A stretch of 64,000 nucleotides of DNA from Vicinamibacteria bacterium (GCA_963668695.2 CAXXLQ010000004.1:288001-352000); one strand, 5' to 3'. Numbered from the stretch's first letter, positions 631 through 56,657 are shown. Program-made: numbers and translations. Notes: generated by a model from the sequence alone, not told the origin.

Positions 631-845
631 TAGCCTATGGGCAAAGTCGCTTGAGCGCAGAGAGCGGTGAGGCGGCCGGCTGACAAGGCGCGCGAGGGAG
701 GAGCCCCCACCGGGAGAACTGGCCCGAGTGTATTTCGACCGAAGCGCAACGATGAGCGAAGCGCAGCGCCAGTTCTCCCGGTGGGGGGGCGGTTCAGCCG
801 GGATGCATCGCCGCTTGAACGCCGCGTGACTTTGTCCATAGGCTG
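631..845. mobile_element. MITE-like repeat family A, carrying two 19-bp motif insertions (704-722, 769-787)
   Basis: Terminal inverted repeats TAGCCTATGGGCAAAGTC...GACTTTGTCCATAGGCTG. CTAA at 846-849 overlaps the alpha-subunit stop codon. Confidence 0.85.
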
Positions 846-2699
846 CTAAACGGCGCCGATCTCCATCTCGGTCACGTAGTCCACAATGGTTTGCGCATCC
901 ATGGGGTGGCCGCTGAAGTGACGCAGGGTCCGAAGCACTCCCCGCGGAATCCGGTCGCCGTATTCGGCGCGCAGAAGCTGGAACATCTGTCCATCACGGT
1001 TCTGATCCAGGACCACGACTCGCTGCCGCGAGGTAATGAAGTCCAGCACCGATGGGGAGAACGGTAGCGCCCGGAGACGCAGGTAGTCCATTTCGATGGC
1101 CGCATCGTCCCGGAGCCGGGTCCGGGCTTCCTCGATGGCCGGATCGGACGAACCAAAGCCGATGATGCCGAGCGGGCTCGCGGAATCCAGCTGGTCCACA
1201 ACGGGCGCTGGAACCATCTCTCGGGCCGTTTCGAACTTCCGGTCGAGCCGGGTCATGATCCGGACGTACGCCTCTTCGCTCTCGGTGTATTCCGCGCTCT
1301 CGTCGTGTCCACTGCCCCTCGTGAAGTACGCGGCACCGGGGTGGTCCGTGCCGGGAAGCGTCCGATACGGGATCGCGTCGCCGTCCACATCCGCGTAGCG
1401 CTGGAAGGATCCCAGGCGTTCCAGATCCTCGCGGGTGAGGACCTTGCCGCGGTCCATCGGACGATCCGGATACTCGAAGGGCTCGGTACCCCAGATGTTC
1501 ATCCCGAGGTCCAGATCGGAGAGCACGAAAACAGGCGTCTGGAGCCGCTCGGCGAGATCAAAGGCCTTCCAGCCGAACTCGAAGCATTCCCGAGTCGAGG
1601 CAGGAATCAGGCAGACGTGTTTCGTGTCTCCGTGGGAGAGGGTGTAGGTGGAGAGAATGTCTCCCTGGGCCGTTCGCGTCGGCAGACCGGTCGAGGGGCC
1701 CACCCGCTGGATGTTCCAGATGACCAGGGGAATCTCGGCGTAGTAGCCGAGCCCGACGAACTCGGACATCAGAGAGATCCCCGGGCCCGAAGTGGCGGTC
1801 ATGGCCCGGGTTCCGGCCCAGCCGGCGGCAAGCGCCATCCCGACGGCCGCCAATTCGTCCTCGGCCTGAACAACCGCGTACGTCGCCTTGCCGTCCGAGT
1901 CCTTCCGGTAACGCTTGAGGAATCCCGTGAGCTGTTCGACGACGCTGGAAGAGGGAGTGATGGGATACCAGGTCGCGACGCTCACTCCACCAAACATGGC
2001 GCCGAGCGCGGCTGCGGCGTTTCCGTCGATGAGGATCTTGCCGCGGTTCTTGTCCATGCGCTCGAGAGTGAAGCGATCCCGCTTGACCAGGTTCTCGCGG
2101 GCGTGGCGGATTCCAATCTCCACCGCCCGGCGGTTCAACTCGACCGCCGCCTTCTTGCGCCGGAACTGGCTGTCTATGGCTCCGAAAATCTCCTCGATGT
2201 CGATCGAAAGGAGTTCTGCCAGCAATCCGACATAAATCATGTTCGCGAGGAGCTTGCGCAATCGAACTTCGCGGGTCACTTCCGCGGCCAGCTCCTGAAA
2301 GGGCGCCGGGTAGAACACCAGGTCGTCGCGGCGGCGCTCCAGGCGCAGGCTTTGTTCGTAGACCACGGCGCTGCCAGGGCTCAGGGACTCGACATCCCGG
2401 ATAGCGGTCTGGGGATTGAGCGCGACCAGGTACTCCACGTTCCGCTTCCGGGCAATCCAGCCGTCCCGGTTCGCGCGAATCGTGAACCAGGTCGGCAATC
2501 CCGCGATGTTGGACGGGAACAGGTTCTTTCCGCCGACCGGAATTCCCATGCGGAACAGCGCCCTGAGCAGGACGAGGTTTGCCGACTGGCTTCCGGAGCC
2601 GTTTACGGTGGCGACCTGGATGGTCAGGTCGTTGACGATGCGCTCTGGCTCGACCTCGCTGGGAGCAACTTCTTCAGCGAGCGCCGTTTTATTGGACAT
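846..2699 (-). CDS. korA: 2-oxoacid:ferredoxin oxidoreductase alpha subunit (fused gamma-alpha)
   Basis: NGSGSQSAN, YPITPSS, QAEDELAA, TSGPGISLM and QRVGPSTGLPT motifs. Confidence 0.95.
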   Translation of the reverse strand: MSNKTALAEEVAPSEVEPERIVNDLTIQVATVNGSGSQSANLVLLRALFRMGIPVGGKNLFPSNIAGLPTWFTIRANRDGWIARKRNVEYLVALNPQTAIRDVESLSPGSAVVYEQSLRLERRRDDLVFYPAPFQELAAEVTREVRLRKLLANMIYVGLLAELLSIDIEEIFGAIDSQFRRKKAAVELNRRAVEIGIRHARENLVKRDRFTLERMDKNRGKILIDGNAAAALGAMFGGVSVATWYPITPSSSVVEQLTGFLKRYRKDSDGKATYAVVQAEDELAAVGMALAAGWAGTRAMTATSGPGISLMSEFVGLGYYAEIPLVIWNIQRVGPSTGLPTRTAQGDILSTYTLSHGDTKHVCLIPASTRECFEFGWKAFDLAERLQTPVFVLSDLDLGMNIWGTEPFEYPDRPMDRGKVLTREDLERLGSFQRYADVDGDAIPYRTLPGTDHPGAAYFTRGSGHDESAEYTESEEAYVRIMTRLDRKFETAREMVPAPVVDQLDSASPLGIIGFGSSDPAIEEARTRLRDDAAIEMDYLRLRALPFSPSVLDFITSRQRVVVLDQNRDGQMFQLLRAEYGDRIPRGVLRTLRHFSGHPMDAQTIVDYVTEMEIGAV

Positions 2700-2954
2700 C
2701 AGGCGATTCTTCGGGACAAGAGCCGCTTCACGGTTCGGGCAGGGGGACGGCGAGACTTTGCTTTGGGGAATCCACGCAGGCTCCCGGGAAACCGAACAAC
2801 CAACGGGGTCGTGTGCCGGAGCGTTGCCGCATCCGGGCGCACCCCGGAGGTGCGGCAGTGTATCCCAATCTCAACCCTGAATTCAGAAAACTGGAGGCCG
2901 GGCGGACTGGAACTCTGAGGGGCACTAGACTTCCTTCTCCCGGGGAACGAACGG

Positions 2955-3779
2955 ATGCGACCCACCTGGCAGGGCAACCTCAAGTTGGCCCTCGTGCTCG
3001 TACCGGTGCGAGCCTACCCGGCGGCCCGCACGAGAACCGTCGCGATGAACCAGTTGCACAAGGAGTGCAAGGCTCGGGTGCGGTTGCAGAAGCGCTGCAC
3101 CTCCTGTGATCAGGATCTCGAACGGGACGAGATCGTTCGCGGTTATGAGTTCGCGAAGGACCAGTACGTGCTGATCCAGGAAGAGGACCTTTCCGCTCTG
3201 CAGCTCCCCTCACACAGAACCCTGGACATCGTCCAGTTCGTCGAGGAATCGGAGATCAATCCGCTCTACTACCACGGCTCCTACTACCTGGCGCCGGCGG
3301 GTGAGGTCGCGGCCGGGCCCTTCCACACCATCCTCAAAGCGATGCAGACGTCGAAGCGGGTAGCCATCGCCCAGGTCGTGCTCAGCGGCAAGGAAAAGGT
3401 GGTGGCGATTCGGCCCTCGGAAGGCGTGTTCGTGATGTCCTTCCTGCACTATGAGGACGAGGTGCGGCAGGTGCCTGATATCGACGACCTGCCGGCGGCG
3501 AGGGAACCAAACGGCGCGGAGACCGCGATGGCCCGGCAGCTGCTGGACTCCTATGCGCGGCCGTTTGACCTGAGCGCGTTCGAGGACGGCTATCGAAAGC
3601 GCTTCCTGGAGATCGTGGAGGCCAAGAGTCGCGGTCAGGAACTGGTCACCACTCCAAGCGTCGAGCCGCGTCGGGTTGTCAACCTCATGGATGCCTTGAA
3701 ATCGAGCCTCGCGAGGATCGAGGCCGAGGGATTGGGCGAAGGTGATCCGGCGCTCGGCGAGGAGCGGCGGGCAAGCTGA
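2955..3779 (+). CDS. ku: NHEJ DNA end-binding protein Ku
   Basis: MRPTWQGNLKLALVLVPV, EIVRGYE, TLDIVQFV, YYLAP and VVNLMDALKSSL motifs. Confidence 0.95.
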   Translation: MRPTWQGNLKLALVLVPVRAYPAARTRTVAMNQLHKECKARVRLQKRCTSCDQDLERDEIVRGYEFAKDQYVLIQEEDLSALQLPSHRTLDIVQFVEESEINPLYYHGSYYLAPAGEVAAGPFHTILKAMQTSKRVAIAQVVLSGKEKVVAIRPSEGVFVMSFLHYEDEVRQVPDIDDLPAAREPNGAETAMARQLLDSYARPFDLSAFEDGYRKRFLEIVEAKSRGQELVTTPSVEPRRVVNLMDALKSSLARIEAEGLGEGDPALGEERRAS

Positions 3780-3868
3780 CCGACTCGAATCCCGAAACCC
3801 GGGACGCGGATTGGCCCGCGCCCTCGGAAGGTCAGCCAATACTCCCGCCCGAATGGCTCGCGCGGGGA

Positions 3869-10517: not shown

Positions 10518-11840
10518 GTGGATACTCGAAGCGCCCTACCAACAAGGTCACCGACTCGAAGCCTTTCCCGCCGCCGCCTGTTGGCCGGCGTTCCCGGTCT
10601 CGCGCTGTTGCCCATTCTTCCGGTGGGTCGTCTCGCCGCCGGAGAACCGCCGGAACCCGGCGCCAGCGAGGAACTGCCGGATTGGGTGCGCCTGGCCCGG
10701 GAAGAAGTCCCGGCAGCCACCGCAAGTCCGTATTTTCAAACCGGCGGCATCGGCCCCTCACCACGTTCCGTGGTCGAGGATGTGGGGGCCCGGCTGAACT
10801 TTCAAAACCGAAGTCCCGCCGCCGCCGACATTGCCGAGGTGATGGGGCGGATCGAGCCGGATCTCCGGTCCCAGCTTGCACGGGTGTTCGGCGCGGGCGA
10901 CGACGAGGTAGCGCTCACTCATTCCACCTCGGAAGGGATTTCCATCGTCGCCTGGAGCCTTGATTGGCGTCCCGGAGACGAAGTCGTCATTTCGAACACC
11001 GAACACCCGGCGAACGTCTTTCCCTGGTACGTCCTTCGAGACCGCTTCGGGATCGTGATTCGGGAGATCGACCTCAGCCCCGGCACGGATGTCGTGGCCG
11101 AGGTTCGGGAACAGCTCTCTCCCAAGACCCGGGTGGTCAGCCTCAGCCACGTTTCCCGGAACAACGGCCGGACGCTCCGCACCGAAGATTCCGCGCGGCT
11201 CGCGGAGCTCCTCCGCGCCCGGGGTGTCCGTTATCACCTTGACGGGGCGCAGGGACCCGGCTGTGTGGCGACCGATTTCGCCGAGCTCGGCTGCGATTGC
11301 TACTCGACTTGCGGACACAAGTGGCTCCTCGGTCCCAAGGGCACCGGCGCGCTCTTCGTCCGGCGGGCCGTTCTGGACGAAGTTCAACTGAGTTGGGCAG
11401 GAGCGCACAGCCACGAAACCATGGACTACGAGGGCAACTACACCCTGCTGCCGAGCGCCGCCCGCTACGAGTTCGGGACCCGGGCACTGGCCGACTTCTA
11501 CGGCTTCGGGCAAGCCGTGCAGTGGATGGAAGACATCGGCCTCGAACGCATCCTCACCCGGATCCAGGACCTCATGAGCTATGGCATCGACGCCGTTCGA
11601 CGGACACGGGAACTCGAACTCGCTTCGCCCGCGGATCCGGCCGACCGCTCGGGGATCCTGGTGGTCCGGCTACCTGAAGGCTGCGACCCGATGGTCCTCT
11701 ATCGAGGTCTCGGCCGGGAGGATGGAATCCTGGCCTCGCCGGTCCGCGGCGAACGGGACTTTCGACTCTCGGTGCACTTCTTCAACACCCGGGAGGAGAT
11801 CTCCTCGGCGGTCGAGGCCATCGTCTCCCGGTGCGCCTGA
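10518..11840 (+). CDS. Class V PLP-dependent enzyme with Tat signal (SufS/isopenicillin-N-epimerase-like)
   Basis: SRRRLL Tat signal, THSTSEG, EHPAN, DGAQ, GHKWLLGPKGTG, RYEFGT, RLSVHFFNT. Confidence 0.88.
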   Translation: MDTRSALPTRSPTRSLSRRRLLAGVPGLALLPILPVGRLAAGEPPEPGASEELPDWVRLAREEVPAATASPYFQTGGIGPSPRSVVEDVGARLNFQNRSPAAADIAEVMGRIEPDLRSQLARVFGAGDDEVALTHSTSEGISIVAWSLDWRPGDEVVISNTEHPANVFPWYVLRDRFGIVIREIDLSPGTDVVAEVREQLSPKTRVVSLSHVSRNNGRTLRTEDSARLAELLRARGVRYHLDGAQGPGCVATDFAELGCDCYSTCGHKWLLGPKGTGALFVRRAVLDEVQLSWAGAHSHETMDYEGNYTLLPSAARYEFGTRALADFYGFGQAVQWMEDIGLERILTRIQDLMSYGIDAVRRTRELELASPADPADRSGILVVRLPEGCDPMVLYRGLGREDGILASPVRGERDFRLSVHFFNTREEISSAVEAIVSRCA

Positions 11841-11866
11841 GTAATCCGGGCCCGCAGAGAGCCTAA

Positions 11867-12298
11867 CAGCCTGTGGCGAAACCCACGCGGCGTTCAACCG
11901 GCGATCCATCCCGGCCAAACAGCCTGTGATGAAACCCGCGCGGCGTTCAACCGGCGATCCATCCCGGCCAAACAGCCTGTGATGAAACCCGCGCGGCGTT
12001 CGGCCGGCGATCCATCCCGGCTGACCGCGTCGCTGCGCGCCGCTCATCGTTGCGTTTCGGTCGAAATACACCAGGTATTCCTCCCTCACGCGCCTTGTCA
12101 GCCAGGCGCCTCACCGGCCTCGGCGCTCACCCGGGTTCCACCACAGGCTGTTCACCACTCCGCTTCGCTGCGTTCTGCGTTGCGTTTCGGTCGAAATACA
12201 CCCGGGCCAGTTCTCCCGGTGGGGGCTCCTCCCTCACGCGCCTTGTCAGCCGGGCGCCTCACCGGCCTCGGCGCTCACGCGGGTTCCACCACAGGCTG
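11867..12298. mobile_element. Compound family A repeat with tandem ~51-bp end duplications
   Basis: CTAA direct repeat at 11863-11866 and 12299-12302. Ends CAGCCTG...CAGGCTG. Confidence 0.88.
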
Positions 12299-12316
12299 CT
12301 AAGCGGGGCGACGAGA

Positions 12317-12775
12317 TTGGGCAAACGAGCGCCCGAGGTGGGCTTTTATTGTGACGCCTGCGACCGATACTCCACCTGGACACCACCCTTCGCGGAAGGC
12401 GACGACCGGTGCCGGCACTGCGGCCACCGGAATCCGCCTGCGGCGGCGGAGGGTTTCTCGGGCGGCGCCGCCTTTGCCTCCTGTCCGCAATGCGGGAATC
12501 CCGAGCTGTACCAGAAGAAGGACGTTCCCCAACAGATCGGTTGCGCAGTGGTCCTGAGCGCCATCGCACTCGCCACGATTGCCTACGCGCTCTGGGACTT
12601 TCCTGGAGCGTTCGTGGTCTTCGCCTCCGTCGCGCTCCTCGACTTCCTCATCTATCGCCGGTTGGGAAGCGTCACGGTCTGTTACCGCTGCCACGCGGAA
12701 TTCCGCAGGTTCCCGGCAAACCCCGCGCATGGAGACTTCGATATGCACCGCGCGGAAGAGTACGAAGCGGAATAG
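12317..12775 (+). CDS. Cys-rich (four CxxC) zinc-ribbon membrane protein of unknown function
   Basis: CDAC, CRHC, CPQC, LYQKKDVPQ, two transmembrane helices, VCYRCH. Start is TTG 12317 or GTG 12338. Confidence 0.75.
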   Translation: MGKRAPEVGFYCDACDRYSTWTPPFAEGDDRCRHCGHRNPPAAAEGFSGGAAFASCPQCGNPELYQKKDVPQQIGCAVVLSAIALATIAYALWDFPGAFVVFASVALLDFLIYRRLGSVTVCYRCHAEFRRFPANPAHGDFDMHRAEEYEAE

Positions 12776-12792
12776 ACGCAGGCGGGTGTTAA

Positions 12793-12971
12793 CAGCCTGT
12801 GGTGAAACCCACGTGAGCGCCGAGACCGGTGAGGCGCCCGGCTGACAAGGCGCGTGAGGGAGGAATACCGGGTGTATTTCGACCGAAACGCAACGATGAG
12901 CGGCGCGAAGCGACGCGGTTCAGCCGGGATGGATCGCCGGTCGAACGCCGTGTGGGTTTTGCCACAGGCTG
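12793..12971. mobile_element. Family A MITE, minimal 179-bp form without the 19-bp motif
   Basis: TTAA on both sides (12789-12792, 12972-12975). Terminal inverted repeats CAGCCTGTGG...CCACAGGCTG. Confidence 0.92.
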
Positions 12972-12975
12972 TTAA

Positions 12976-13298
12976 CAGCCTGTGGTGAAACCCAAGCGGC
13001 GTTCCCGAGCCAGAAGCGACGGGGATCGGGTGCTCCCGCCCCCCGTCCCTTCCGCTCCGGGGTCTACGCGGTGCTTGCGCCCCGCTCCGGAAACGAGCGG
13101 CGATCCATCCCGGCTGAATCACTCCGCTTCGCTCCGTTCTGCGTTGCGTTTCGGTCGAAATACACTCGGGCCAGTTCTCCCGGTGGGGGCTCCTCCCTCA
13201 CGCGCCTTGTCAGCCGGACCCCCACCGGGAGAACTGGGCCTCGCCCCCACCGGGAGGACTGACCGCTCTCGGCGCTCACCCGGGTCCACCACAGGTTG
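12976..13298. mobile_element. Family A MITE, inverted, with a ~90-bp family D module and three 19-bp motifs
   Basis: Flanked by TTAA at 12972-12975 and 13299-13302. Confidence 0.88.
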
Positions 13299-14468
13299 TT
13301 AAAGATCCCCGACGCCCGCAAGGACCTTTCGGCTGAATGGCTGCGTGCCGCTCTCGTCGCGGGAGGCCGTCCGGACTGTCCGCCGATCCGGGAGCTGACC
13401 TGCGAGACCATCGGGGAAGGGATCGGACTGATCGGAGAAATCCTGCGCTGCGAACTGACCTTCGTCGAGGGCACCCGACCTTCCGACAGCGTGATCGTGA
13501 AACTCCCCAGCAGAAAACGCACGAACCGGAAACTCGGCCGCAGGTGGAGGCTGTACCGCCGCGAGTACAGCTTCTACCGCCACCTGGCGTCCGAACTACC
13601 GCTCCGCACCCCGGCGCTCCTCTACGGTGATTTCGAAGCTCGAAGCCACCGTTTCGTCCTCGTTCTCGAGGATCTCCGCGGCATGGCCCCAGCGGACCAG
13701 GTCGAGGGCGCGAACCCTCGACAGGTGAGGCGCGCCGTGCGGGCGGCGGCCCAACTCCACGCAAAATACTGGGACCGGGTCGAACCTCTGGCCGCCTCGG
13801 GTCTTGATGAGACGATGGCTCCGGGGGTCTGGCTGGGCGTGCAGATCCTGTATCTGTTGAGCCTGCCGCGGAGTCTGCCGCGCCTCTCGGCTTGGTGGTC
13901 CGAAGAGGTGCAGGATCTGGCGGAGGAGTACGGACTTCGGCTGGCAGACCACCTCGCTCACCTGGCTGGAGAACCGCTGACATTCGTTCATGGCGACTAC
14001 CGCCTCGACAACATGTTCTTCGGGGAAGACGGCAAGGACGACTTCGCGGTGGTGGACTGGCAAAACAGCGGGGTCTCGAGCGGCCTCTACGACGTGGCCT
14101 ACTTCCTCGCGGGCAGCGTCTCGACGGAGGTCCGCCGCGCGGTCGAAAAAGACGCGCTCCGGGAGTATCACGACATCGTTTGCAGTCTGGGCACGCGGGA
14201 CTTCACGTTCGAGCACTGCTGGCGGCTCTACCGCGAGACCCTGCTGGGCTGCCTGGTGTTGCCGGTGGTTGCCGCCGGCCAACTGCTGGAAGAGCCCCCG
14301 GAACGGCAACTGCGACTCGAGGACGCGATCGCGAAGCGGACCGCGGCAGCGGTCCAGGATCGAGATGCCGGCGCGTTCCTGCCCCCTCTCCCGCCACTGC
14401 TGAGCCGGGCAGGGCTCCGGCGCGCTCTCTGCCGGGGCGGTTACCGGGTCTATCGGGCGCTCCCCTAG
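13296..14468 (+). CDS. APH/choline-kinase-like phosphotransferase (EcKinase/DUF1679-like)
   Basis: VIVK, REYSFY, LVLEDL, HGDYRLDNMFF, VVDWQ, DVAYFL. Confidence 0.88.
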   Translation: MLKIPDARKDLSAEWLRAALVAGGRPDCPPIRELTCETIGEGIGLIGEILRCELTFVEGTRPSDSVIVKLPSRKRTNRKLGRRWRLYRREYSFYRHLASELPLRTPALLYGDFEARSHRFVLVLEDLRGMAPADQVEGANPRQVRRAVRAAAQLHAKYWDRVEPLAASGLDETMAPGVWLGVQILYLLSLPRSLPRLSAWWSEEVQDLAEEYGLRLADHLAHLAGEPLTFVHGDYRLDNMFFGEDGKDDFAVVDWQNSGVSSGLYDVAYFLAGSVSTEVRRAVEKDALREYHDIVCSLGTRDFTFEHCWRLYRETLLGCLVLPVVAAGQLLEEPPERQLRLEDAIAKRTAAAVQDRDAGAFLPPLPPLLSRAGLRRALCRGGYRVYRALP

Positions 14469-14720
14469 CAGCCTGTGGATAAAGTGGCGTGAGCGCCGAG
14501 AGCGGCCAGTTCTCCCGGTGGGGGCGAGGCCCAGTTCTCCCGGTGGGGGTCCGGCTGACAAGGCGCGTGAGGGAGGAGCCCCCACCGGGAGAACTGGCCC
14601 GGGTGTATTCCGACCGAAACGCAACGATGAGCGACGCGAAGCGACGCGGTTCAGCCGGGATGCATCGCCGCTCGAGCCCCCACCGGGAGAACTGGGCCGC
14701 GTGACTTTGTCCACAGGCTG
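14469..14720. mobile_element. Family A MITE with four 19-bp motif insertions
   Basis: CTAG (containing the upstream gene's stop) on the left and CTAA on the right. Terminal inverted repeats intact. Confidence 0.9.
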
Positions 14721-14751
14721 CTAACAGCCCGTCGCCGGTCCAGCTTTTCCC

Positions 14752-16137
14752 ATGCCGCAAACCGAAGAAGGGCGGTTCACCACCGGCTCGACGATGCGCC
14801 ACGTGGTCGTCATGACCACGACCGCCTCCGTCGGGTTCATGTTCCTGTTCCTGGTGGACTTCCTTGCGCTGTTCTACATCTCGCTGCTCCGCGACGTACG
14901 TCTCGTAGCCGCCGTCGGACTCGCCTCCTTCGTCCAGCACGTCGTCAGTGCCGTGGCCATCGGCCTCGCCGTCGCCGCGACCGCGCTCGTCAGCCAGGCG
15001 CTGGGCGCGCGCAACCGGTCGCTGGCGCGCAGCCGGACCACCTCGTGCCTGACCGCTTCTTTCGTGACCCTCACCGTCATCGCCGGCGCGGTGTTCGTCT
15101 TTCGCCAGGAGGCCGTCGGCCTGCTCATCGAAGCCGGGCCGGTCACGGAGGTGGCCAGCCGCTACCTGGCGTGGATCCTTCCGTCGCTGCCACTACTGGG
15201 TATTGGAATAAGCACCGCGGCGATTCTCAGAGCCGAGGGCGACGCCCGGCGGGCCCTGATCGTCACGATGGTCGCCGGCGGGGTGGCGTTCGTGCTGGAT
15301 CCGCTGGTGATCCTGGGGCTGGGACTCGGGGTGGACGGCGCGGCCTGGGTGGTGATTCTCGCCAGGCTCGTCACCGCGCTGGTGGGACTCCACTTCTTGA
15401 TCGGTGTCCATGGCCTGGCCGCTCCGCTCCGGGTAGCCGGAGTGTCACGCGACCTCCGTGCGATCTTCGCGGTGGGCGGACCGGCGGTGCTGGCCCAACT
15501 GTCGACACCTTCCGGCTTCCTGTTGCTGACCGCCTGGGTCGGGCGCTTCGGAGAAAGCGCCGTCGCGGGCTGGTCCGTGGTGACGCGACTGGTCGTGCTC
15601 GGGTTCTCCGGCATCATCGCACTGTCGGTAGCGGTGGGAGGCATCTTCGGCCAGAACTACGGCGCCCGAAAGCTGGAGCGGGTAGTGGCCACCTTTCGGG
15701 ACAGCCTGGTCTTCGGTGTCCTCTACGCGCTGGCGGCGTGGGCGGTGCTTTGGATCGGGACCGACGCCGTCGTCTGGGCGTTCGGGATGTCCGGCGAGGG
15801 CGCCAGGATCGTCCGGGCCTTCTGCCGGATCGGGGCCGGCGGGTTCGTCCTCGCGGGGGCGGCCTACGTGGCGACGGCGGCCTTCAACAATCTGGGCCGT
15901 CCGCTCTGGGCCACGATGCTCAACTGGTCGAGGGCCGGGCTGGCGATTCCTGCCATGCTGCTGCTAGCGGTGGGCACGCTGGAAGGCAGGGTGATCCTGT
16001 TCGCGCTCGACGGCCCCGGCGTGGTCTACGCCCAGGCCCTCGGGAGCAGTCTGGTCGGGGTGATCGGCGCCGGGGTGGGATGGCGCTTCGTGAAGGCCGT
16101 GGCGAGAGAGCGTCTGTCGGCGGGTTCGGATCCCTAG
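14752..16137 (+). CDS. MATE family efflux transporter
   Basis: About 12 transmembrane helices, with SQALGA, ILRAEGD, LDPL.I and GQNYGA motifs. Confidence 0.92.
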   Translation: MPQTEEGRFTTGSTMRHVVVMTTTASVGFMFLFLVDFLALFYISLLRDVRLVAAVGLASFVQHVVSAVAIGLAVAATALVSQALGARNRSLARSRTTSCLTASFVTLTVIAGAVFVFRQEAVGLLIEAGPVTEVASRYLAWILPSLPLLGIGISTAAILRAEGDARRALIVTMVAGGVAFVLDPLVILGLGLGVDGAAWVVILARLVTALVGLHFLIGVHGLAAPLRVAGVSRDLRAIFAVGGPAVLAQLSTPSGFLLLTAWVGRFGESAVAGWSVVTRLVVLGFSGIIALSVAVGGIFGQNYGARKLERVVATFRDSLVFGVLYALAAWAVLWIGTDAVVWAFGMSGEGARIVRAFCRIGAGGFVLAGAAYVATAAFNNLGRPLWATMLNWSRAGLAIPAMLLLAVGTLEGRVILFALDGPGVVYAQALGSSLVGVIGAGVGWRFVKAVARERLSAGSDP

Positions 16138-16602
16138 CAGCCGGTGGTGGGACCCGGGTCAGCGCCGAGCCCGGCCAGTCCTCCCGGTGGGGGCGAGGCC
16201 CAGTTCTCCCGGTGGGGGTCCGGCTGACAAGGCGCGTGAGGGAGGAGCCCCCACCGGGAGAACTGGCCCGGGTGTACTCCGACCGAAACGCAACGATGAG
16301 CGGCGCGCAGCGACGCGGTTCAGCCGGGATGGATCGCCGGCCGAGCCCCCACCGGGAGAACTGGGCCGCGTGGGTTTCACTACCGGTTGTTTCGCCGGGA
16401 TGGATCGCCGGGCGAGCCCCCACCGGGAGAACTGGGCCGCGCGAGTTTCATTACAGGCTGTTTCGCCGGGATGGATCGCCGGGCGAGCCCCCACCGGGAG
16501 AACTGGGCCGCGCGAGTTTCATTACAGGCTGTTTCGCCGGGATGGATCGCCGGGCGAGCCCCCACCGGGAGAACTGGGCCGCGTGGGTTCCACCACCGGC
16601 TG
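16138..16602. mobile_element. Family A MITE with ~71-bp internal tandem amplification, seven 19-bp motifs in total
   Basis: Begins after CTAG (MATE stop). The unit GCCGGGATGGATCGCCGG..GAGCCCCCACCGGGAGAACTGGGCCGCG repeats four times. Confidence 0.88.
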
Positions 16603-16614
16603 CCGGCAGCCCCC

Positions 16615-19236
16615 TCAGGCCGGAACCAGCTCGGCTCTGTCCGCCACCCCGCGCGGAGCGACCTCAATCGTTCCGCCGGCATCGCTCCGCACCTCGACCA
16701 AGGCTCCGGGCGGAAGCACCCCGCCAACGATCATCCGCGCGACCGGTGTCTCGACCCGGTGCTGGATGACCCGCCGAACGGGACGGGCGCCATAGAGCGG
16801 GTCGTACCCCTCGGCGGCAAGGACTCTGAGGGCGTCCTCGGTCACCTCGAGCGTGAGGTCTTGCTCGCGGACCCGTTCACGGAGCCGGTCCAGCTGGAGG
16901 TTCACGATTTCGGTCACCTGGTCCCGGGTGAGGCTCCGGAACACGACGGTTTCGTCCACCCGGTTCAGGAACTCGGGCGGGAACTCGCGCCGAAGCTCCG
17001 AAATCACTTCGCGCTTCATCTCGTCATATCCGCGTCCCGCCTCGGCAAGCGCCAGCACCCGCTCACTCCCGACGTTCGACGTCATGATGAGTACCGTGTT
17101 GCGGAAGTTGACCAGCCGGCCGTGCGAGTCGGTGAGCCGGCCGTCGTCGAGCACCTGAAGCAGCACGGTCCGCACCTGTGGGTGGGCCTTTTCGATTTCA
17201 TCCAGCAGGACAACCGCGAACGGCCGGCGGCGCACCGCCTCCGTCAACTGGCCACCCTCTTCGAAGCCGACATATCCGGGGGGCGCCCCGGTCAGCCGGG
17301 ACACCGAGTGCTTCTCGGTGTACTCGGACATGTCCAGGCGCACCACGGCGTGCTCGTCATCGAAGAGTTCGGCGGCGAGCGCGCGGGCGAGTTCGGTCTT
17401 TCCCACCCCGGTGGGGCCGGCGAACAGGAAGGCGCCGAGCGGCCGATCCGGATCCTGGACGCCGGCGCGAGCGCGGACCACCGCGTCGGCCACCGCCCGT
17501 ACCCCTTCGTCCTGTCCGATGACCCGGCGGTGGAGCAGGTCTCCCAGCCGCAGCAGTTTTTCCCGCTCGCCTTCGAGCAGCCGGTCCACCGGGATACCCG
17601 TCGACCGCGCAACCACCGAGGCTACGTCGGAGGCGTCCACCTCCTCACGAAGGAGACGACCGTCCTGCCCACCGAGCCGCGTCTCCGCGGCCGTCAGTTC
17701 GCGTTTCAGTTCCTCGATGGTCCCGTACCGGAGTTCGGCCGCCCGGCCGAGGTCCTGCTCGCGTTCAGCCCGCTCCATCTGGAGGTTCGCCTCTTCGATC
17801 CGCTCGCGAAGCCTCCGCACCCCAAGGAGCTGCGCTTTCTCGCCCTGCCACTGGGTGCGGAGGGCTCGCGCCTCCTCTTCGAGGTCGGCGATCCGCCGTT
17901 CGAGTTCCGTGAGTCGCTTGCGCGAAGCGTCGTCCTTTTCCTTCTTCAGCGCCTCACGCTCGATCTGAAGCGACAGGAGCCTCCGCTCCACCTCGTCGAG
18001 ACTGGTGGGAACACTGTCCATCTCGGTCCGCAGGCGGGCGCCCGCCTCGTCCACCAGATCGATGGCCTTGTCGGGCAGGAAGCGGCCGGAGATGTAACGG
18101 CTGGACATGGACGCCGCGGCCAGGAGCGCGCCGTCCTGGATCCGGACGCCGTGGTGGACCTCGTAGCGCTCCTTGAGGCCGCGCAGGATGGTCACGGTGT
18201 CCGGGACGGAGGGCTCATCAACCACCACGGTCTGGAACCGCCGTTCGAGCGCGGCATCCTTTTCGATGTACTGGCGGTATTCGTCCAGGGTGGTCGCCCC
18301 GATGCAGTGCAGGTCCCCCCGGGCGAGCGCCGGCTTCAGCAGGTTGGAGGCATCCATCGCGCCGTCGGTTCGGCCGGCGCCGACGACGGTATGCAACTCG
18401 TCGACGAAGAGAATGACCCTTCCGTCCGACTCCTGCACGGCGCCAAGCACCGCCCTGAGCCGCTCTTCGAACTCGCCCCGGAACTTCGCACCGGCGATGA
18501 GCGCCCCCATATCGAGCGCCACGACCTGCCGGTCGCGGAGCCCTTCGGGTACGTCACCCTTCACGATCCGGAGCGCCAGCCCCTCCGCGATGGCCGTCTT
18601 GCCGACTCCCGGTTCCCCGAGCAGCACCGGGTTGTTCTTGGTACGCCGAGACAGGATCTGCATGACCCGCCGGATCTCATCGTCACGACCGATGACCGGG
18701 TCCAGTTTGTCGGCACGGGCGAGGGACGTCAGGTCCCGCCCGTATTTCTGGAGTGGCTCGTAGGCGCTCTCGGGGTTGGGGCTTGAGGCGCGTGCGGGAC
18801 CGCGCACCGCCTTGATCGCTCCTTCGAGCCTCTTCCGGTCCACTCCGACGGCGCGGAGAGCATGGCTGGCCGCCGACTTCTGCAAGACCAGAGCGAGGAG
18901 GAGATGTTCCACGCTCAGGAACTCGTCCCCGAGCCTTCGCGCCTCCTCCGACGCGGTGTGAATCACCTTGGCGAGCCCCTGGGATGCGGAAGGCGAGCCC
19001 TCGGCTGCGTAGTGCTGCACCGGCAGCGCACCAAGGGCCGTGTCCAGGTTGCGACCCAGAGCGGAGGGTTCGACGTCCAGCCGGCGAAGGAGCCGGAGAG
19101 CAAGCCCATCGGGCGCATCGTCGAGCAAGGCGGCGAGCAGGTGCTCGGGAGTGGTTTCCGGGTTTGGGCGCCCTCCTGCGAGGCTTGCAGCCCGCGACAG
19201 TGCAGCGCCAGCACGTTCGGTAGCGGAAAGAGACAT
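16615..19236 (-). CDS. clpB: ATP-dependent chaperone ClpB
   Basis: Clp N-repeats, GEPGVGKT, coiled-coil M domain, [22 protein letters not shown]. Confidence 0.97.
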
Positions 19237-19402
19237 GATCTATCTACTCCATACTCATTAAATCTGATGTGTAGTATAGCCGATTCTCCTGACAAAGCAC
19301 ACAGAACCGAGGGAACAAGGACCGGCGGGCTCGCCCCGGCGCGCCGGCTCCGCTCGCTGGGGCACTCCAGCCGGGTGGCGGGGGCTAACGGCCAGGCGCT
19401 AA

Positions 19403-20064: not shown

Positions 20065-20086
20065 CCCCCCTTCCCGACGCAGCCGC

Positions 20087-37376: not shown

Positions 37377-37394
37377 CAGTGGGCGGCAGCCTAG

Positions 37395-37609
37395 CAGCCT
37401 GTGAACAAAGTCACGCGGCGTTCGACCGGCGATCCATCCCGGCTGAACCGCCCCCCCACCGGGAGAACTGGCGCTTCGCCTCGCTCATCGTTGCGCTTCG
37501 GTCGAAATACACTCGGGCCAGTTCTCCCGGTGGGGGCTCCTCCCTCGCGCGCCTTGTCAGCCGGGCGCCTCGCCACTCTCGGCGCTCACGCCACTTTATC
37601 CACAGGCTG
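37395..37609. mobile_element. Family A MITE with two 19-bp motifs
   Basis: CTAG duplication at 37391-37394 and 37610-37613. Confidence 0.92.
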
Positions 37610-40170: not shown

Positions 40171-40256
40171 TGCCGGGAGCGGGGCTCGAACCCGCACGTC
40201 CCGTGAGGGACAAGAGATTTTAAGTCTCCCGCGTCTGCCGATTTCGCCATCCCGGC
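40171..40256 (-). tRNA. tRNA-Leu(UAA)
   Basis: GCCGGGATGGCGAAATCGGCAGACGCGGGAGACTTAAAATCTC, long variable arm, GGTTCGAGCCC. CCA not encoded. Confidence 0.95.
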
Positions 40257-40348
40257 CAGCCTGTCTGGCGGCGATTCCCATCGCCGCAAAGACGGTTACA
40301 CGCACCAGACGCGCCGTCAGCGGCGCATCCGGTCAGGATAAATGGCGG

Positions 40349-40421
40349 AGGCGGCGGGCGGATTCGAACCGCCGAATAGAGGTTTTGCAGACCTCCGCCT
40401 TGGCCACTTGGCTACGCCGCC
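40349..40421 (-). tRNA. tRNA-Cys(GCA)
   Basis: GGCGGCGTAGCCAAGTGG..GAGGTCTGCAAAACCTC..GGTTCGAATCC. Confidence 0.95.
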
Positions 40422-40437
40422 CTGACCTACCCATAAC

Positions 40438-40512
<75 letters not shown>

Positions 40513-47852: not shown

Positions 47853-48016
47853 GGGTGGACAATGTGACATCAGCGGCCAGTTCTCCCGGTGGGGGCGAGG
47901 CGTCCCGCTGGCAACGGCGAGGGAGGAGCCCCCACCGGGAGGAAACACGGGGTTCGCTTCGCCGTCCCCGGACGGATCCGGGCAATGGGCGAGGGTGGTG
48001 GTGTGAGTTTCGCGGC

Positions 48017-50581
48017 CTACGGCCGCGATGCCGGTCTGCGGACCGGCGCTCCTGGCGCTCCTTCGGGACGGAACGTGCTCACGGAAATGCGGCCGTCCGC
48101 GCCGATGGCGACGGTCACCGCACCGGATAGATCGGTCCGGTAGATCTGGGCGCCGCTTCTGCTGAGGCGCTCCAGCACGCCGTCATCCGGAAGACGCCGT
48201 CTGGGATCGGCGCGGACCGAAACGAGCGCCACCTGGGGGGCTACCGCGGCGAGGAACTCCGGCGTCGTGGAAGAGCGGCTGCCGTGATGACCGACCTTGA
48301 GCACATCCGAACGCAGAGCCGCGCCATAGCGGTCCAGCAAAACCCGCTCGGTTGCCTCCCCGGCGTCGCCGGTGAGAAGAAGCCGCTTTCCGGCGTAGTC
48401 CACGGCCAGCACGACCGAGCGCTCGTTGGACCGCTCTCGCGGCCCGGGCCGGTGGTCGCCGGAGGCAAGCACCGAGAACCGGGCGCCGCCCAACTCGAAA
48501 CGCTCCCCGGCTCTAAGGCGCCGCAGCGGAATCCCCCGCCGCACCCGCTCGCGGTGTATCTGCCCGACCGCGGTGCGACGATCCTCCACGGTCCCTCCGC
48601 CCTCCCAGAGTTCGTCCACCCCGAAGTTGCGGAACACTGCCGGGAAACCACCAACGTGATCCAGATCCCCGTGGGTGGGAACGGCGGCCCGGAGACGCCG
48701 GTAGCCCATCTCGGCCAGGAACGGAGTAACGATCGCCTCGCCGGCGCTCCATCCATCGAATGCAGTACCCGCGTCGAGGAGTACCGCACCGCCGGCGGGG
48801 AGGCCAAGAACCAGCGCGTCACCCATCCCTACATCCAGCGCGGTGAGCCGAAGTGTCCCGTCCGCAGGCTCCGAGAGCGGCAGCGTGGCCAGACCAAGGA
48901 GAACGATGAGCGCGGCCGGCAGGATTCTTCGCCTACCGCGGAGCGTCAGGACGACGATCGCCGTTCCCAGCCATGCCAGGAGCCAGATAAACGCCGGGCG
49001 GGCCACGGGAAAGGCGCCGAACGAAAGCCCGGCGCCCCATTCGCTCAGCCCGATGAGAGCCTCGGTGGCAATCGTGAGAAGCGCGCCCACCGCGTCCGCC
49101 GGAAGTCCGGTCCCGGCAAGCGCCAGCCAGGCGAACCCAAGACCGAGAACCGGTCCCGCCAACAGACCGGCCGGAACGGCGATCAGCAGCCCGCCGAACA
49201 CGACCCGGCCGAAATGCCAGGCGAGGATGGGGAAGGTAGCGAGCTGCGCCGCGACCGTGACACCCAACGGAACCAGAATCCAGGCGCGCCAGCGGCCCGG
49301 GCGTTCCCACGAGACTTCGGCGGGGTCTTCCGGACGGAAGGCGGCGATGATCCCCAGGGTGGCGGCGAAGCTGAGCTGGAACCCCGCGTCGAGTGCGTTC
49401 CACGGCGACCAGGCGAGCAAAACCAAGGCGGCCAGCCCCAGCCCGTTCATGGCCTCTCCAAAGAGTCCGCGGCGCAACCCCAGGATCACGACCGTCGCCA
49501 TCAGGACAGCGCGCACCACCGAAGGGCGCGCTCCGCAGAGCGCGGCGTAGAGCGGAAGCGCGAACAACAGAATCGCGAGCGCCTTCCGGCGCGGTACGCC
49601 GACCAGTACCGCCATTCCATAGATCAGCAGGCTGAGCAGTCCCACGTGGAGCCCGCTGACCGCCATCAGGTGAAGCGTTCCCGCGTCCCGGAAGGCCCGC
49701 TCCGTCTCCGGCGGAGCCAGGGTGCGATCTCCGATGAGCATCGCTGCCACGACCGCCAGCACGTCGTCGGGGAAGCCTCCACTCTGGAGGCGCTCCCGGC
49801 TCCGGGCTCTGAGAACCTGCAATGCTCGCCAGGGCGCCGGCCCCGGTGCGACTTCCCGGACCAGCACTCCGCTCTTGGTGGAGCCGAAGAGGGCGACCGG
49901 CCCCCGAATCTCGCGCCCCCCCGGGTTTCCCGGCGGGCGCGGTTCGGAAACCCGCGACCAGATGGAGATTCGCGTGCCTCGGGAAAGCCTTCGGAGGTGC
50001 TCCCGGTGATTGCCGTCCACGGTGATCCGCGCCTCCCCGCGCACCGGCCATTCCTGGCGGTTGGCGGCCAGCCGATCCACCTTCAGAGCGATCGAGGTGC
50101 GACGACCGGAATCTTCCGCGTCGTACAGCAGGACTCCCTCGAGCCGGACGGGGCGTGCCAGGCGTTCGGCACCCAGAGCGCGGACGGTCTCCGCAAGGGG
50201 CGACACCGCTCCGGGAGCGGGACGATTGAGGGCGCCAGCCACAAAAGCCGCTACCAGCAGGAGCCCCGTCTTGATGCCGGCGGGGGCCCCGGAGAGTCGG
50301 CCTCCCCGGCGCCGCCGAAGTGGGTTCTCAGCCAGCAGACTCGGGGCGAGCAGGCCGGCCCCGAGCACAAACAGTGCGCCCAGCAGGAATCGCGGCCACA
50401 CCGGCGGTCCGGGCATCACCGCAGAAGCAGCGACCCCTCCCCAGAAAGAGGCGGCCAGCAGGAGCAGCGGGGCAGGCGCGGTTCGGGCGGTGGGCGCGGT
50501 TCGGGCGGTGGGCGCTCCCTCGGAAGGGCCGGCCGGGGGTTCGGTCCGGGTTTCGGGAAGGTGGGGATTTCTGATCTCCAC
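48017..50581 (-). CDS. comEC: Competence protein ComEC/Rec2
   Basis: HLMAVSGLHV, PSVVRA, GFQLSF, LDVGMGD, THGDLDH, KVGHHGS. Start uncertain. Confidence 0.92.
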   Translation of the reverse strand: MEIRNPHLPETRTEPPAGPSEGAPTARTAPTARTAPAPLLLLAASFWGGVAASAVMPGPPVWPRFLLGALFVLGAGLLAPSLLAENPLRRRRGGRLSGAPAGIKTGLLLVAAFVAGALNRPAPGAVSPLAETVRALGAERLARPVRLEGVLLYDAEDSGRRTSIALKVDRLAANRQEWPVRGEARITVDGNHREHLRRLSRGTRISIWSRVSEPRPPGNPGGREIRGPVALFGSTKSGVLVREVAPGPAPWRALQVLRARSRERLQSGGFPDDVLAVVAAMLIGDRTLAPPETERAFRDAGTLHLMAVSGLHVGLLSLLIYGMAVLVGVPRRKALAILLFALPLYAALCGARPSVVRAVLMATVVILGLRRGLFGEAMNGLGLAALVLLAWSPWNALDAGFQLSFAATLGIIAAFRPEDPAEVSWERPGRWRAWILVPLGVTVAAQLATFPILAWHFGRVVFGGLLIAVPAGLLAGPVLGLGFAWLALAGTGLPADAVGALLTIATEALIGLSEWGAGLSFGAFPVARPAFIWLLAWLGTAIVVLTLRGRRRILPAALIVLLGLATLPLSEPADGTLRLTALDVGMGDALVLGLPAGGAVLLDAGTAFDGWSAGEAIVTPFLAEMGYRRLRAAVPTHGDLDHVGGFPAVFRNFGVDELWEGGGTVEDRRTAVGQIHRERVRRGIPLRRLRAGERFELGGARFSVLASGDHRPGPRERSNERSVVLAVDYAGKRLLLTGDAGEATERVLLDRYGAALRSDVLKVGHHGSRSSTTPEFLAAVAPQVALVSVRADPRRRLPDDGVLERLSRSGAQIYRTDLSGAVTVAIGADGRISVSTFRPEGAPGAPVRRPASRP

Positions 50582-51276: not shown

Positions 51277-51277
51277 T

Positions 51278-55700: not shown

Positions 55701-56023
55701 TTGCCTCGTCCCGCCTCCCGCAACAGATCAACCAGATAGCGGAAGAACTCGTTGTGCCCCCCCTGGTAGGAGGACACGGCGATGGCGTCCGCGTCCTCCT
55801 CGAGCGCCGCGGCGGCTATCTCCCCGGCGGCTCGGTTGTGCCCAAGATGAACGACCTCGGCGCCACCCCGCTGCAACAACCGTCGGAATACATGGATCGA
55901 GGCATCGTGACCGTCAAACAGCGCGGTCCCCGTGATGAAGCGGAGCGGAAGCTCGGCGAGCGGATCGAAAGGGGCCCGGGAGGCCGGAGATCCGGCCGGG
56001 GACAGGGTGACGGACGTGCTCAA
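52709..56023 (-). CDS. icmF: Fused isobutyryl-CoA mutase / MeaI GTPase
   Basis: B12 domain FDGHDASI, GTPase GTGGAGKSS / ETGGIGQ / NKAD, mutase [13 protein letters not shown] and [10 protein letters not shown]. Confidence 0.94.
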
Positions 56024-56028
56024 CTCAA

Positions 56029-56279
56029 CAGCCCGTGGATGGAGTGATGTGAGGGCCGAGACCGGGGAGGCCCAGTTCTCCCGGTGGGGCCAGTCCTCCC
56101 GGTGGGGGCCCGGCTGACAGGGCGCGCGAAGGAGGAATACCCAGCGTATTTCGACTGAAGCGCAACGATGAGCGACGCGAAGCGCCAGTTCTCCCGGTGG
56201 GGGGGCGGTTCAGCCGGGATGCATCGCCGGCCGAGCCCCCACCGGGAGAACCGGGCCACTTGACTTCATTCACGGGCTG
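56029..56279. mobile_element. Family A MITE with four 19-bp motifs (two in tandem)
   Basis: CAGCCCGTG...CACGGGCTG ends. Confidence 0.85.
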
Positions 56280-56406
56280 TTCAGTTTCCAATAGCACTGC
56301 CGCGCCGCGATGACGGCTGGAAACGGCGCTTACCGGACCGTAGCACTCCAGCCGAGGCCGCGGCCTTCTCCCACCGGCCCGGAGGCCACGAACCGCAGCG
56401 GGCTAG

Positions 56407-56657
56407 CAGCCTGTGGTGAAACCCACGTGAGCGCCGAGGTCGGTGAGGCCCAGTTCTCCCGGTGGGGCCAGTCCTCCCGGTGGGGGCCCGGCCGACAAGG
56501 CGCGTGAGGGAGGAGCCCCCACCGGGAGAACTGGCCCGGGTGTATTTCGACCGAAACGCAACGAAGAACGGAGCGAAGCGGAGTGGTTCGGGCGGGATGG
56601 ATCGCCGGCCGAGCCCCCACCGGGAGAACTGGGCCGCGTGGGTTTTGCCACGGGCTG
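56407..56657. mobile_element. Family A MITE with four 19-bp motifs
   Basis: CTAG duplication at 56403-56406 and 56658-56661. The latter contains the IHF/HU stop codon. Confidence 0.9.

Follow-up and report, generated by a model that had tools for sequence, protein, structure and literature searches.

Introduction

The small dispersed repeats (SDRs) SDR4 to SDR6 of Nostoc punctiforme and other Nostocaceae, which Elhai and colleagues are said to have described in 2008, are reportedly 21-27 nt long and present in 5-117 copies. These authors reportedly asked by what means stretches of about 20-30 bases could become mobile. Here, we describe a 19-bp word, CCCCCACCGGGAGAACTGG, with a similar behavior in the genome (G000) of a sponge-associated acidobacterium of the Vicinamibacteria. 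The word was noticed in an earlier note on a stretch of 64,000 nucleotides of this genome (G000:C4:288001-352000; hereafter, the window), where it was described as a very small mobile insertion. Our analysis supports this description. The motif is the added unit and not an ancestral part of the miniature inverted-repeat transposable element, or MITE, that is its main host. We tentatively regard it as an ultra-small repeat of the SDR type that spreads when short patches are copied from a template in a motif-specific manner, a reading whose chance we put a little below even.

The comparison with the Nostoc repeats, drawn already in the earlier note, is apt. Like them, the motif measures tens of bases, is dispersed and non-coding, is nested in repeats or hairpins without target duplication, and is present or absent at matching sites of relatives. 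The SDR-type behavior is thus seen in size and copy number, in nesting without duplication, and in presence/absence, a likeness of behavior only. The motif differs in belonging to the Acidobacteriota and in forming one family of about 1,600 copies, more than 10 times the SDR counts given above, with a slightly shorter unit. Furthermore, a gene insertion that 24 orthologues lack shows its polarity, and its independence from host-repeat subfamilies has been measured.

Other short repeats share some of these features. The bacterial interspersed mosaic elements (BIMEs) of enterobacteria, reported by Gilson and colleagues in 1991, are said to combine repetitive extragenic palindromic (REP) or palindromic units (PUs) with short extra motifs whose places are fixed relative to the PU. 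The present case resembles them as intergenic mosaics in which short modules stand in many combinations around hairpin units. However, only one module of 20 nt is involved here; it occupies many positions in either orientation, and its hosts are unrelated and include a gene. The Rickettsia palindromic elements are palindromes of 100-150 bp that insert in frame into genes, where they often occur. The motif is likewise a small repeat tolerated in frame in a conserved gene, where it adds six residues to a transporter loop, but only one credible gene copy is present among 1,613. DNA uptake sequences of Neisseriaceae and Pasteurellaceae have cores of 9-12 nt, originate through substitutions, and frequently lie in coding DNA. 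Like them, the motif is a short word of exact sequence, found about once per 2.5 kb in either orientation, conserved within a family, and often arranged as inverted pairs. In contrast, it has 20 nt, arises by insertion, and is almost lacking in genes, and therefore does not behave as an uptake sequence.

Two further systems are closer in possible mechanism. REPINs, which are associated with REP-associated tyrosine transposases (RAYTs), are small non-autonomous high-copy repeats that are lineage-confined and intergenic, and the REPIN paper names SDRs as unexplained repeats perhaps of like origin (PMC3116915; a passage on the Nostoc SDRs is found in PMC5861425). The motif is neither a palindrome nor a hairpin, is far shorter, and no Y1/RAYT gene was found in G000 or in its motif-rich relative G004. 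The REP-like hairpins that host the motif, rather than the motif itself, may be RAYT substrates in relatives. Short-patch double illegitimate recombination, abbreviated SPDIR, produces microindels in Acinetobacter baylyi. A few bases are replaced by an ectopic patch when single-stranded DNA at replication forks pairs at microhomologies and is incorporated in the manner of Okazaki fragments (10.1101/2023.11.22.568220; a further report is 10.1101/2024.07.02.601687). SPDIR and the motif have in common a short replacement, the lack of target duplication, and the lack of a dedicated transposase. However, SPDIR patches are variable and each event is unique, whereas the motif is one fixed word found about 1,600 times with constant boundaries. 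The 19-mer was not found in the literature searched, supplementary files being outside the search.

The Unit and Its Boundaries

The window contains 31 copies of the 19-mer with up to two mismatches (23 exact, seven with one mismatch, and one with two), and the number expected from 100 dinucleotide-preserving shuffles is zero. Together with partial copies at 39496-39510 and 47929-47941, this gives 33, all within positions 704-56632, which agrees with the roughly 34 copies first reported. The G000 assembly comprises 4.10 Mb in four contigs with 67% G+C (91.7% complete, contamination figure 9.3%). It holds 1,123 exact copies and 1,613 copies with up to two mismatches (403 with one and 87 with two), about one per 2.5 kb, and the two orientations are nearly equal in number. 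The genome-wide k-mer count proposed in the earlier note reveals a larger family than the note had reported. The motif core is the most frequent of all 14-mers of G000 with 1,366 occurrences, compared with 551 for the best 14-mer of the MITE backbone. Repeat counts in G000 are inflated by a few percent because about 280 kb of the assembly is duplicated as strain variants.

The motif was described as 19 bp long, and this core stands, but the true unit is longer. The full unit of 20-22 nt is G-CCCCCACCGGGAGAACTGG-(C/G)C: a G precedes the motif in 87% of the 1,613 copies, and the motif is followed by C or G, then by C (92%), and then by another C (73%). At the MITE site C74, where fills were ascertained by length alone, the 22-mer GCCCCCACCGGGAGAACTGGCC accounts for 292 of 320. 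The unit replaces 1-3 host bases, and no target duplication is present at any junction examined. In tandem pairs, such as those already recognized at 56072-56108 and 56450-56486, neighboring units overlap by one base, resulting in an 18-nt period. The lack of an internal palindrome and of coding capacity is also confirmed. Since the motif has no inverted ends and is well under the MITE size range (about 50-500 bp), it is not itself a MITE.

Single-linkage clustering of 16 + 16-nt flanks yields about 80 flank contexts in G000. Three candidate regularities were rejected. The motif is not generally the loop of a palindrome, as the mean flank stem over the 80 contexts is 3.18 bp and the permuted mean is 3.20 bp (standard deviation 0.13); nonetheless, the target is palindromic at the REP site and at the transporter gene site described below (CCCGCGCGGG). 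An apparent strand or replichore bias of 70:0 in the genome G018 was exposed by a reverse-complement search as a row-listing artefact, and no positional strand bias is seen in G000. A link to tRNA genes or attachment sites was not supported either, since the word lies inside none of the 58 tRNA or tmRNA genes predicted by Aragorn and only one of these genes lies within 150 nt of a copy.

Insertion into a Conserved Gene

The polarity of the motif is seen most directly in coding DNA. Genes were called with a crude caller based on third-position G+C content (GC3), whose open reading frames (ORFs) cover 77.7% of G000. Only 206 of the 1,613 copies lie wholly within called ORFs, nearly all in 5' over-extensions of the calls. 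The 24 copies located deeper in ORFs include a single credible gene locus, which is listed twice via a strain-variant contig. The word is almost lacking in genes. The earlier statement that all copies are intergenic holds in the window but fails genome-wide on account of this one copy.

The gene at C4:393184-396339, outside the window, encodes a 1,052-residue transporter similar to AcrB of the resistance-nodulation-division (RND) type. The motif lies in frame, reads ...HGGEPGPHRENWRDAAI..., and adds six residues to a loop of the transporter. Orthologues were found in all 26 other family genomes searched, which represent seven genera. The six residues are missing in 24 of the 26 members of the orthologue set (...HGGEPA------RDAAV...) and only G000 and its nearest relative, G001, possess them. 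In the nucleotide sequence, the empty form GAGCCCG-CG-CGGGAT becomes GAGCCCG-G[motif]-CGGGAT, so that two bases are replaced by 20 with a net gain of 18. This event is an insertion into a unique, non-repeat site. Thus, the motif is inserted into pre-existing DNA.

Host MITE and Independence from Its Subfamilies

The main host is a MITE of 179 bp that folds as a single long hairpin (DNA fold -63 kcal/mol, z -8.6). A core-anchored search found 662 copies in G000, and 626 of them are full-length. Sites were mapped by removing the motifs and aligning the remainder to the empty 179-bp form; apparent sites past position 160 were excluded because they possibly represent spill-over from the next MITE in tandem arrays. 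The motif occupies at least nine backbone positions, with a fixed orientation at each. The five or more internal sites of the earlier note are thereby extended. Plus-strand motifs are found at sites 33/34 (a33, 11 copies), 74 (C74, about 300), 138 (three), and 154 (E154, about 192). Minus-strand motifs are found at sites 37 (A37, about 190), 43 (B43, about 350, tandem pairs included), 110 (three), 120 (D120, about 57), and 126 (nine). Site B43 carries up to five motif copies. The junctions read initially in the window are borne out, namely GGA-ATA-CCGG to GGA-G[motif]C-CCGG, CGA-AC-GCCG to CGA-G[motif]-GCCG, and GCG-ACG-CGG to GCG[reverse motif]GG-CGG. Among the 626 full-length copies, 149 are empty, and nearly every combination of the five major sites is present. 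In the predicted fold of the MITE at 14466-14727, A37 pairs with E154 and B43 pairs with C74.

The earlier note also proposed that insertions are afterwards amplified by MITE copying. As the main route, this is not consistent with the wealth of site combinations or with the backbone haplotypes. MITE subfamilies are marked by positions 11, 16, 17, 18, 63, 96, 163, 164, and 168, which are linked across the element with correlation coefficients (phi) of 0.6-0.97. Markers 63 and 96, which span site 74, are correlated with each other at phi 0.83, whereas the state of site 74 is correlated with them at only -0.07 and -0.03. The phi between motif state and position 11 is 0.11 for site 37, 0.15 for site 43, 0.03 for site 74, -0.11 for site 120, and 0.06 for site 154, and |phi| between motif states and subfamily haplotypes does not exceed 0.17. 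Even a single-nucleotide polymorphism (SNP) located 5 nt from site 74 shows a phi of -0.04 (197:96 in filled copies and 206:84 in empty copies). The motif states are weakly correlated with each other (0.20-0.26 among sites 43, 74, and 154). Site 154 is partly restricted, in that several backbone alleles never co-occur with the motif.

Since motif states are not linked to subfamily haplotypes, gain or loss of the motif in MITE copies has happened many times since the subfamilies arose, and a single insertion followed by MITE copying is not the main route. The process carries no flanks beyond about 10-20 nt. General exchange among MITE copies is rare, and backbone haplotypes are intact.

The fill of site 74 diverges from the majority base by 0.43% per site and the adjacent 40 nt by 11.2%. 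Private variants reach 0.87% per motif site compared with 1.05% per backbone site, and a value this low is obtained for 13% of random column sets. That the total divergence of the motif is 25-fold lower is due to the lack of old subfamily variants and not to fewer private mutations. The motif is thus a single, young, homogeneous family superimposed on host copies whose diversity is older. The idea that purifying selection acts more strongly on the motif within G000 was considered and rejected because the private-variant rates are nearly equal.

The terminal inverted repeats of the MITE were also compared. Variants at positions 11-18 and 163-168 (e.g., window 12803-12810 and 12955-12960) are linked with phi 0.58-0.76. 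The two ends therefore match within MITE subfamilies, which would be expected of ends that have to pair or to be recognized together.

REP-like Hairpins as a Second Host

Outside MITE loci, 324 of the 1,613 copies are found, mostly in a REP-like element; the second of its hairpins forms the palindrome GCCGGTCTGAAGACCGGC. In the 3' arm of this hairpin, an A is replaced (AAG-A-CCGGC to AAG-G[motif]-CCGGC) in 32 copies. In the 5' arm, the symmetric T is changed to [reverse motif]C, the exact mirror image, in 22 copies. A loose regular expression was used for counting, and many of the "empty/other" matches among its 466 are false. If the mirror form had arisen by simple inversion, the asymmetric loop would be turned as well, but its orientation is unchanged; therefore, two independent events took place under one rule. 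The filled hairpin and its empty counterpart that had been paired in the window are both confirmed. The motif at 21388-21406 (minus strand) lies in the second hairpin as GCGATGCCGGTCTGGACT[motif]CCGGCGGTCCC. The empty element at 48007-48052 (plus strand) has two hairpins, the second of which is the palindrome GCCGGTCTGCGGACCGGC.

Distribution among Relatives

With up to one mismatch, the word is found in each of the 15 other congeneric genomes, whose counts range from 7 to 740 (1,526 in G000). It is also present in five of nine genomes of other genera in the family, which makes five genera including its own, and in none of 16 genomes of two other families in the order. Low counts in fragmented assemblies possibly result from collapsed repeats; assemblies of one to four contigs have 0, 0, 0, 1, 13, 58, 78, 114, 255, 665, 740, and 1,526 copies. 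An exact scan of one genome per species returned, among the matches listed, almost only Acidobacteriota or Vicinamibacteria. Two of the listed matches are in other phyla, which by arithmetic is within chance for a 19-mer in 596 Gb. Viral contigs had no exact match to the word.

Across three genomes, motif number is independent of host MITE abundance. G000 has about two motifs per MITE. G010, a congener assembled in two contigs, has about 200 candidate MITE loci, which among those listed are mostly of the empty 179-nt form with 89-94% identity, and it has only 13 motifs, nine or ten of which lie in REP hairpins. In the closed genome G020, which belongs to another genus, at least 43 MITE copies accompany a single motif. 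In G018 and G019, from two further genera, the motif is found at other MITE positions while site 74 is empty; in G018, it is also found in a different REP variant with 44-nt tandem units.

The sole motif-bearing MITE of G020 (L096, G020:C1:1117292-1117497) is 77-84% identical to 40 near-full-length paralogues. Great age or acquisition from another lineage may account for this.

Such a distribution could also arise if the word were functional and kept by selection or drive, for example as a nucleoid or regulatory binding site or as a signal for recombination or DNA uptake, with generic mutation supplying the insertions. The word is kept in all 15 congeners and four further genera although the surrounding MITE has diverged, the G020 copy being only about 70% identical to a G019 copy. 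Its rank among 14-mers, the balance of its orientations, and the pairing of motifs in opposite MITE arms in the predicted fold would also be consistent with a function. However, the copy number ranges from 13 to 1,526 in complete or near-complete congeners and is 0 or 1 in some family members, a variation between relatives that is too large for an essential site. The 149 empty MITE copies, the similar rates of private mutation in motif and backbone, and the single credible coding copy, unlike DNA uptake sequences, which are frequent in genes, also argue against a function. Moreover, identical 20-nt insertions are not created by selection alone. We consider this explanation improbable.

Turnover between Strain Variants

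Three pairs of duplicated segments in the assembly allow strain variants to be compared: C1 with C4:304-421 kb (about 99.5% identity), C3 with C4:3505-3538 kb (97.6-99.7%), and C4:13.6-148 kb with C4:3783-3913 kb (about 99%), the last reflecting an overlap of about 130 kb between the ends of C4. In these alignments, 20 of 30 indels of at least 6 nt lie in motif or MITE sequence by manual reading (a script flagged seven). Two adjacent MITEs differ by GGA-ATA-CCGGG in C3 and GGA-G[motif]C-CCGGG in C4, with flanks identical over more than 100 bp. At site 43, GC is exchanged for A[motif] at three loci. Turnover of the motif is thus ongoing at the strain level. The MITE pair at C4:3524.4k is missing from the orthologous locus in G001, G004, and G009, and therefore that MITE insertion is recent; for the same reason, the change at C74 in this pair cannot be rooted as a gain or a loss.

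The strain variants also bear on the explanation that the motif is an ancestral part of the MITE, with short forms arising by deletion, or that all sites derive by slippage from one ancestral copy, an objection that the earlier note had raised against itself. Tandem copy number differs at two strain-variant loci in 18-nt steps, including B43 pairs, which indicates that slippage acts on existing copies and agrees with the up to five copies at this site. One imprecise deletion of 15 nt within the motif was also found. As a general explanation, however, ancestry or slippage is contradicted by the gene copy that is missing in 24 of 26 orthologues and by site sets that differ between genera. Empty MITE forms are not simple deletions, because ATA, AC, or GC stands in the place of the unit. 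The empty 179-nt form dominates the loci listed in G010, as does the unfilled form in G020. Furthermore, distances of up to 120 nt separate the sites, which occur in either orientation and in hosts that are unrelated. We regard this explanation as very improbable.

The duplicated 280 kb, with 97.6-99.7% identity overall and with C1 covering C4:304-352 kb of the window, fits the contamination figure of the assembly. Strain-specific segments of 2-14 kb lie between otherwise 99.5% identical contigs, for example at C1:9649-12081 compared with C4:411550-411581 and at other gaps. One such segment ends at a REP-like hairpin.

Composite Elements with Motif-like Ends

About 28 loci in G000 start with the first 13-15 motif bases and continue as ACCCTCATGATCGGGTCC..., and about 25 loci end in ...GCATTTTCACAGCAACTGG, according to a manual reading of 51 pattern matches. 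In 13 cases, a left end and a right end are 145-375 nt apart. The resulting composites are 230-400 nt long, run from CCCCCACCGGGAGAA to AACTGG, and hold a REP-like hairpin, which may or may not have a motif nested in it. They occupy sites that are also used by the motif, namely E154, C74, and a33 of the MITE and the REP hairpin. A composite at site 154 reads, with slashes at its borders, CCGAG/CCCCCACCGGGAGAA...CAGCAACTGG/GCCGCGTGGG. The motif corresponds to the left end of the composite (13-15 nt) joined to its right end (4-6 nt), and AA is common to both junctions. Judging from these sequences, either a composite inserts into the word or the word would be the minimal form of the composite.

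In the window, a composite left end is located at 39496-39665 (plus strand), where the first 15 motif bases (39496-39510) lead into the module ACCCTCACGATCGGGTCC... and then into a REP-like hairpin. This changes the interpretation of positions 39506 and 47929, which had been taken for partial insertions. Both are composite left ends in which 13-15 motif bases run into longer modules, and they are not decayed motifs. A cluster of three tRNA genes at 40171-40512 (minus strand) lies directly downstream of the composite fragment and REP-like hairpins at 39496-39730. Rfam 15 matched only tRNAs in eight composite loci and in the window.

Composite-type left ends are found in the genus designated g1, and none was seen in the motif-rich genomes G018 and G019, which belong to other genera. 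In G010, up to about eight of 21 matches to a 15-mer can be motifs, and five of the eight matches listed are of the composite type, so that composite left ends appear to outnumber motifs there. At G010:C1:649278-650059, three composite-type left ends (15 motif bases followed by A) recur with a period of 383 nt, which suggests a tandem array of composites in a motif-poor genome.

These observations raise the possibility that the unit is a minimal non-autonomous element, consisting of the two joined ends of the composite, and that both forms are moved in trans by a recombinase or transposase. The paired ends, their location at exact motif sites, and the shared AA, as expected of a crossover core, would all agree with such an element. 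The same is true of fixed unit boundaries in non-homologous contexts and of the mirror-image insertions in the REP palindrome, which point to recognition of a target sequence. The more than 100-fold difference in copy number between congeners also resembles bursts of mobile elements. However, neither G000 nor the matches from 15 congeners yielded a protein-coding composite, and composite-type left ends were found in genus g1 only. A 20-bp duplex would be unable to form the circular intermediates of the IS110 type. We know of no transposase that deletes 1-3 target bases, as the motif does. In view of these points and of the enzymes described next, we consider a minimal element, the main rival to templated copying, possible but rather unlikely.

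Candidate Enzymes

No candidate reverse transcriptase (PF00078) was found in G000, and the motif does not behave as a retro-element (retron, group II intron, or diversity-generating retroelement). Y1/RAYT transposase genes (PF01797) were likewise not found in G000, an assembly of four contigs that is 91.7% complete. A TnpB-like match in G000 was sub-threshold only. G000 contains a single IS110 gene (PF01548), and the ends of this element are unrelated to the motif, which separates the motif from the IS110/IS1111 type. Among 27 family genomes, Y1 genes are present in 14, with none in the motif-rich G004, G018, and G019, and IS110 genes are present in 11. Neither tracks motif abundance. These results speak against a minimal element moved in trans by such enzymes. 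On the other hand, the lack of a reverse transcriptase or Y1 transposase to compete favors templated copying in G000.

RecA, DprA, and MutS are present in G000 and its congeners. The loss of these repair genes was therefore rejected as the cause of a raised patch rate.

RAYT-like Y1 genes were found in 12 of 14 searched congeners. The gene L157 (G001:C17:2353610-2356840) shows an HVHVL sequence and a downstream, tyrosine-containing YHDR, and REP-like hairpins adjoin the RAYT-like gene of G001. The IS110 gene of G000 (L108, C4:482399-482872) lies outside the window, and its element is inserted in the second REP hairpin (GCCGACCGGAGGTC/.../GGCG) with GGTC at both junctions and a non-coding left end of about 270 nt. 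L108 is a candidate bridge-RNA element aimed at hairpins that are also used by the motif.

Proposed Mechanism

The motif-specific short-patch copying that we tentatively favor would use existing copies as templates in two tiers. In the first and rare tier, a short patch with the unit would be written into a non-homologous site, mostly in hairpin-forming repeats and once in a gene. In the second and frequent tier, the unit would move between paralogous copies of a host repeat at the matching position. The patch in this tier would be guided by a few flanking bases, and therefore neighboring SNPs would not be carried along. As a guess at the chemistry, single-stranded patches may anneal at replication forks or extruded hairpins in an SPDIR-like manner. 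SPDIR itself predicts no fixed unit, and a motif-specific factor would be needed that makes the word, and not other MITE segments, the thing copied.

Several observations weigh against this templated copying. The boundaries of the unit are constant in about 80 flank contexts. General short-patch exchange is not seen, and the postulated motif-specific factor was not found. RecA, DprA, and MutS are all in place, so that a raised patch rate finds no explanation in a repair defect. The identity of the motif with the joined ends of the composite, at common sites, is what a transposon-like explanation predicts. Finally, the exact word is kept in five genera despite the divergence of the MITE, which may indicate constraint over passive copying.

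A bolder proposal is that dedicated machinery, guided by a nucleic-acid template, writes one 20-base word into hairpin repeats and occasionally into genes. A nucleic-acid template would be the most plausible guide because all 20 positions are kept alike. We hold this proposal to be doubtful.

Copies of the Motif in the Window

The host copies in the window illustrate the variety of filled sites. The empty 179-bp copies recognized earlier are confirmed at 12793-12971 (plus strand), which serves as the reference backbone and forms one long hairpin, and at 23775-23953 (minus strand). The MITE at 630-850 (plus) carries the motif at C74 (704-722, plus) and D120 (769-787, minus), and a truncated MITE at 12150-12303 (minus) carries it at C74 (12207-12225, minus in the window). 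The copy at 13065-13300 (minus) has motifs at 13171-13189 (minus, C74), 13219-13237 (plus, B43), and 13244-13262 (plus, A37, two mismatches). Four sites are filled in the copy at 14466-14727 (plus), at 14506 (minus, A37), 14531 (minus, B43), 14579 (plus, C74), and 14677 (plus, E154).

The same four sites are filled in the copy at 16135-16600 (plus), with A37 at 16175, B43 at 16200, C74 at 16248, and E154 at 16346. Its right end is followed by three more tandem copies of 71 nt with a motif in each (16417, 16488, and 16559), so that 16346-16577 comprises four head-to-tail repeats (period 71 nt) of the MITE right end with the site-154 motif. G000 has comparable arrays at other places, for example at C4:1953171-1953312 and C4:2067531-2067672.

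Two adjacent MITE copies at 19402-19747 (plus) each carry the motif at B43 (19446-19464 and 19594-19612, both minus). The copy at 37394-37609 (minus) has motifs at 37453-37471 (plus, D120) and 37518-37536 (minus, C74). The MITE fragment at 47877-47941 has a motif at 47877-47895 (minus); the partial motif at 47929-47941 (plus) consists of the first 13 bases, has a C74-type left flank, and continues into another module. The last two MITEs contain the tandem pairs mentioned above, both at B43 in minus orientation. The copy at 56030-56270 (plus) is also filled at D120 (56185, minus) and E154 (56236, plus, one mismatch), and the copy at 56406-56660 (plus) is also filled at C74 (56516, plus) and E154 (56614, plus).

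Public sequencing contigs from four runs and four studies were compared with window positions 11800-21800. The unique parts of this region recur at 99-100% identity in runs X1, X8, and X15, one study being labelled as a sponge metagenome. The short-read contigs end at MITE borders and are mute on motif polymorphism and on transcription of the repeats.

Biological Significance

The word represents a second, independent case of an SDR-like repeat, in another phylum and with about 1,600 copies of a single family, and it is one of the smallest mobile-like DNA units known. The case adds a polarized gene insertion, ongoing turnover between strain variants, and relatives that span 0 to about 1,500 copies. 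Together with the fixed junction rules, this range among relatives makes the mechanism testable by comparative genomics and biochemistry. If dedicated machinery does write the word, it would be the smallest actively mobile DNA unit known. As the word is too short for two-end transposase binding or for circularizing, such machinery would represent a new class of DNA mobility, and it would probably explain the small dispersed repeats of Nostoc too. For the sponge symbionts, the word and its host repeats break short-read assemblies and inflate strain differences, and the word can add residues to proteins.

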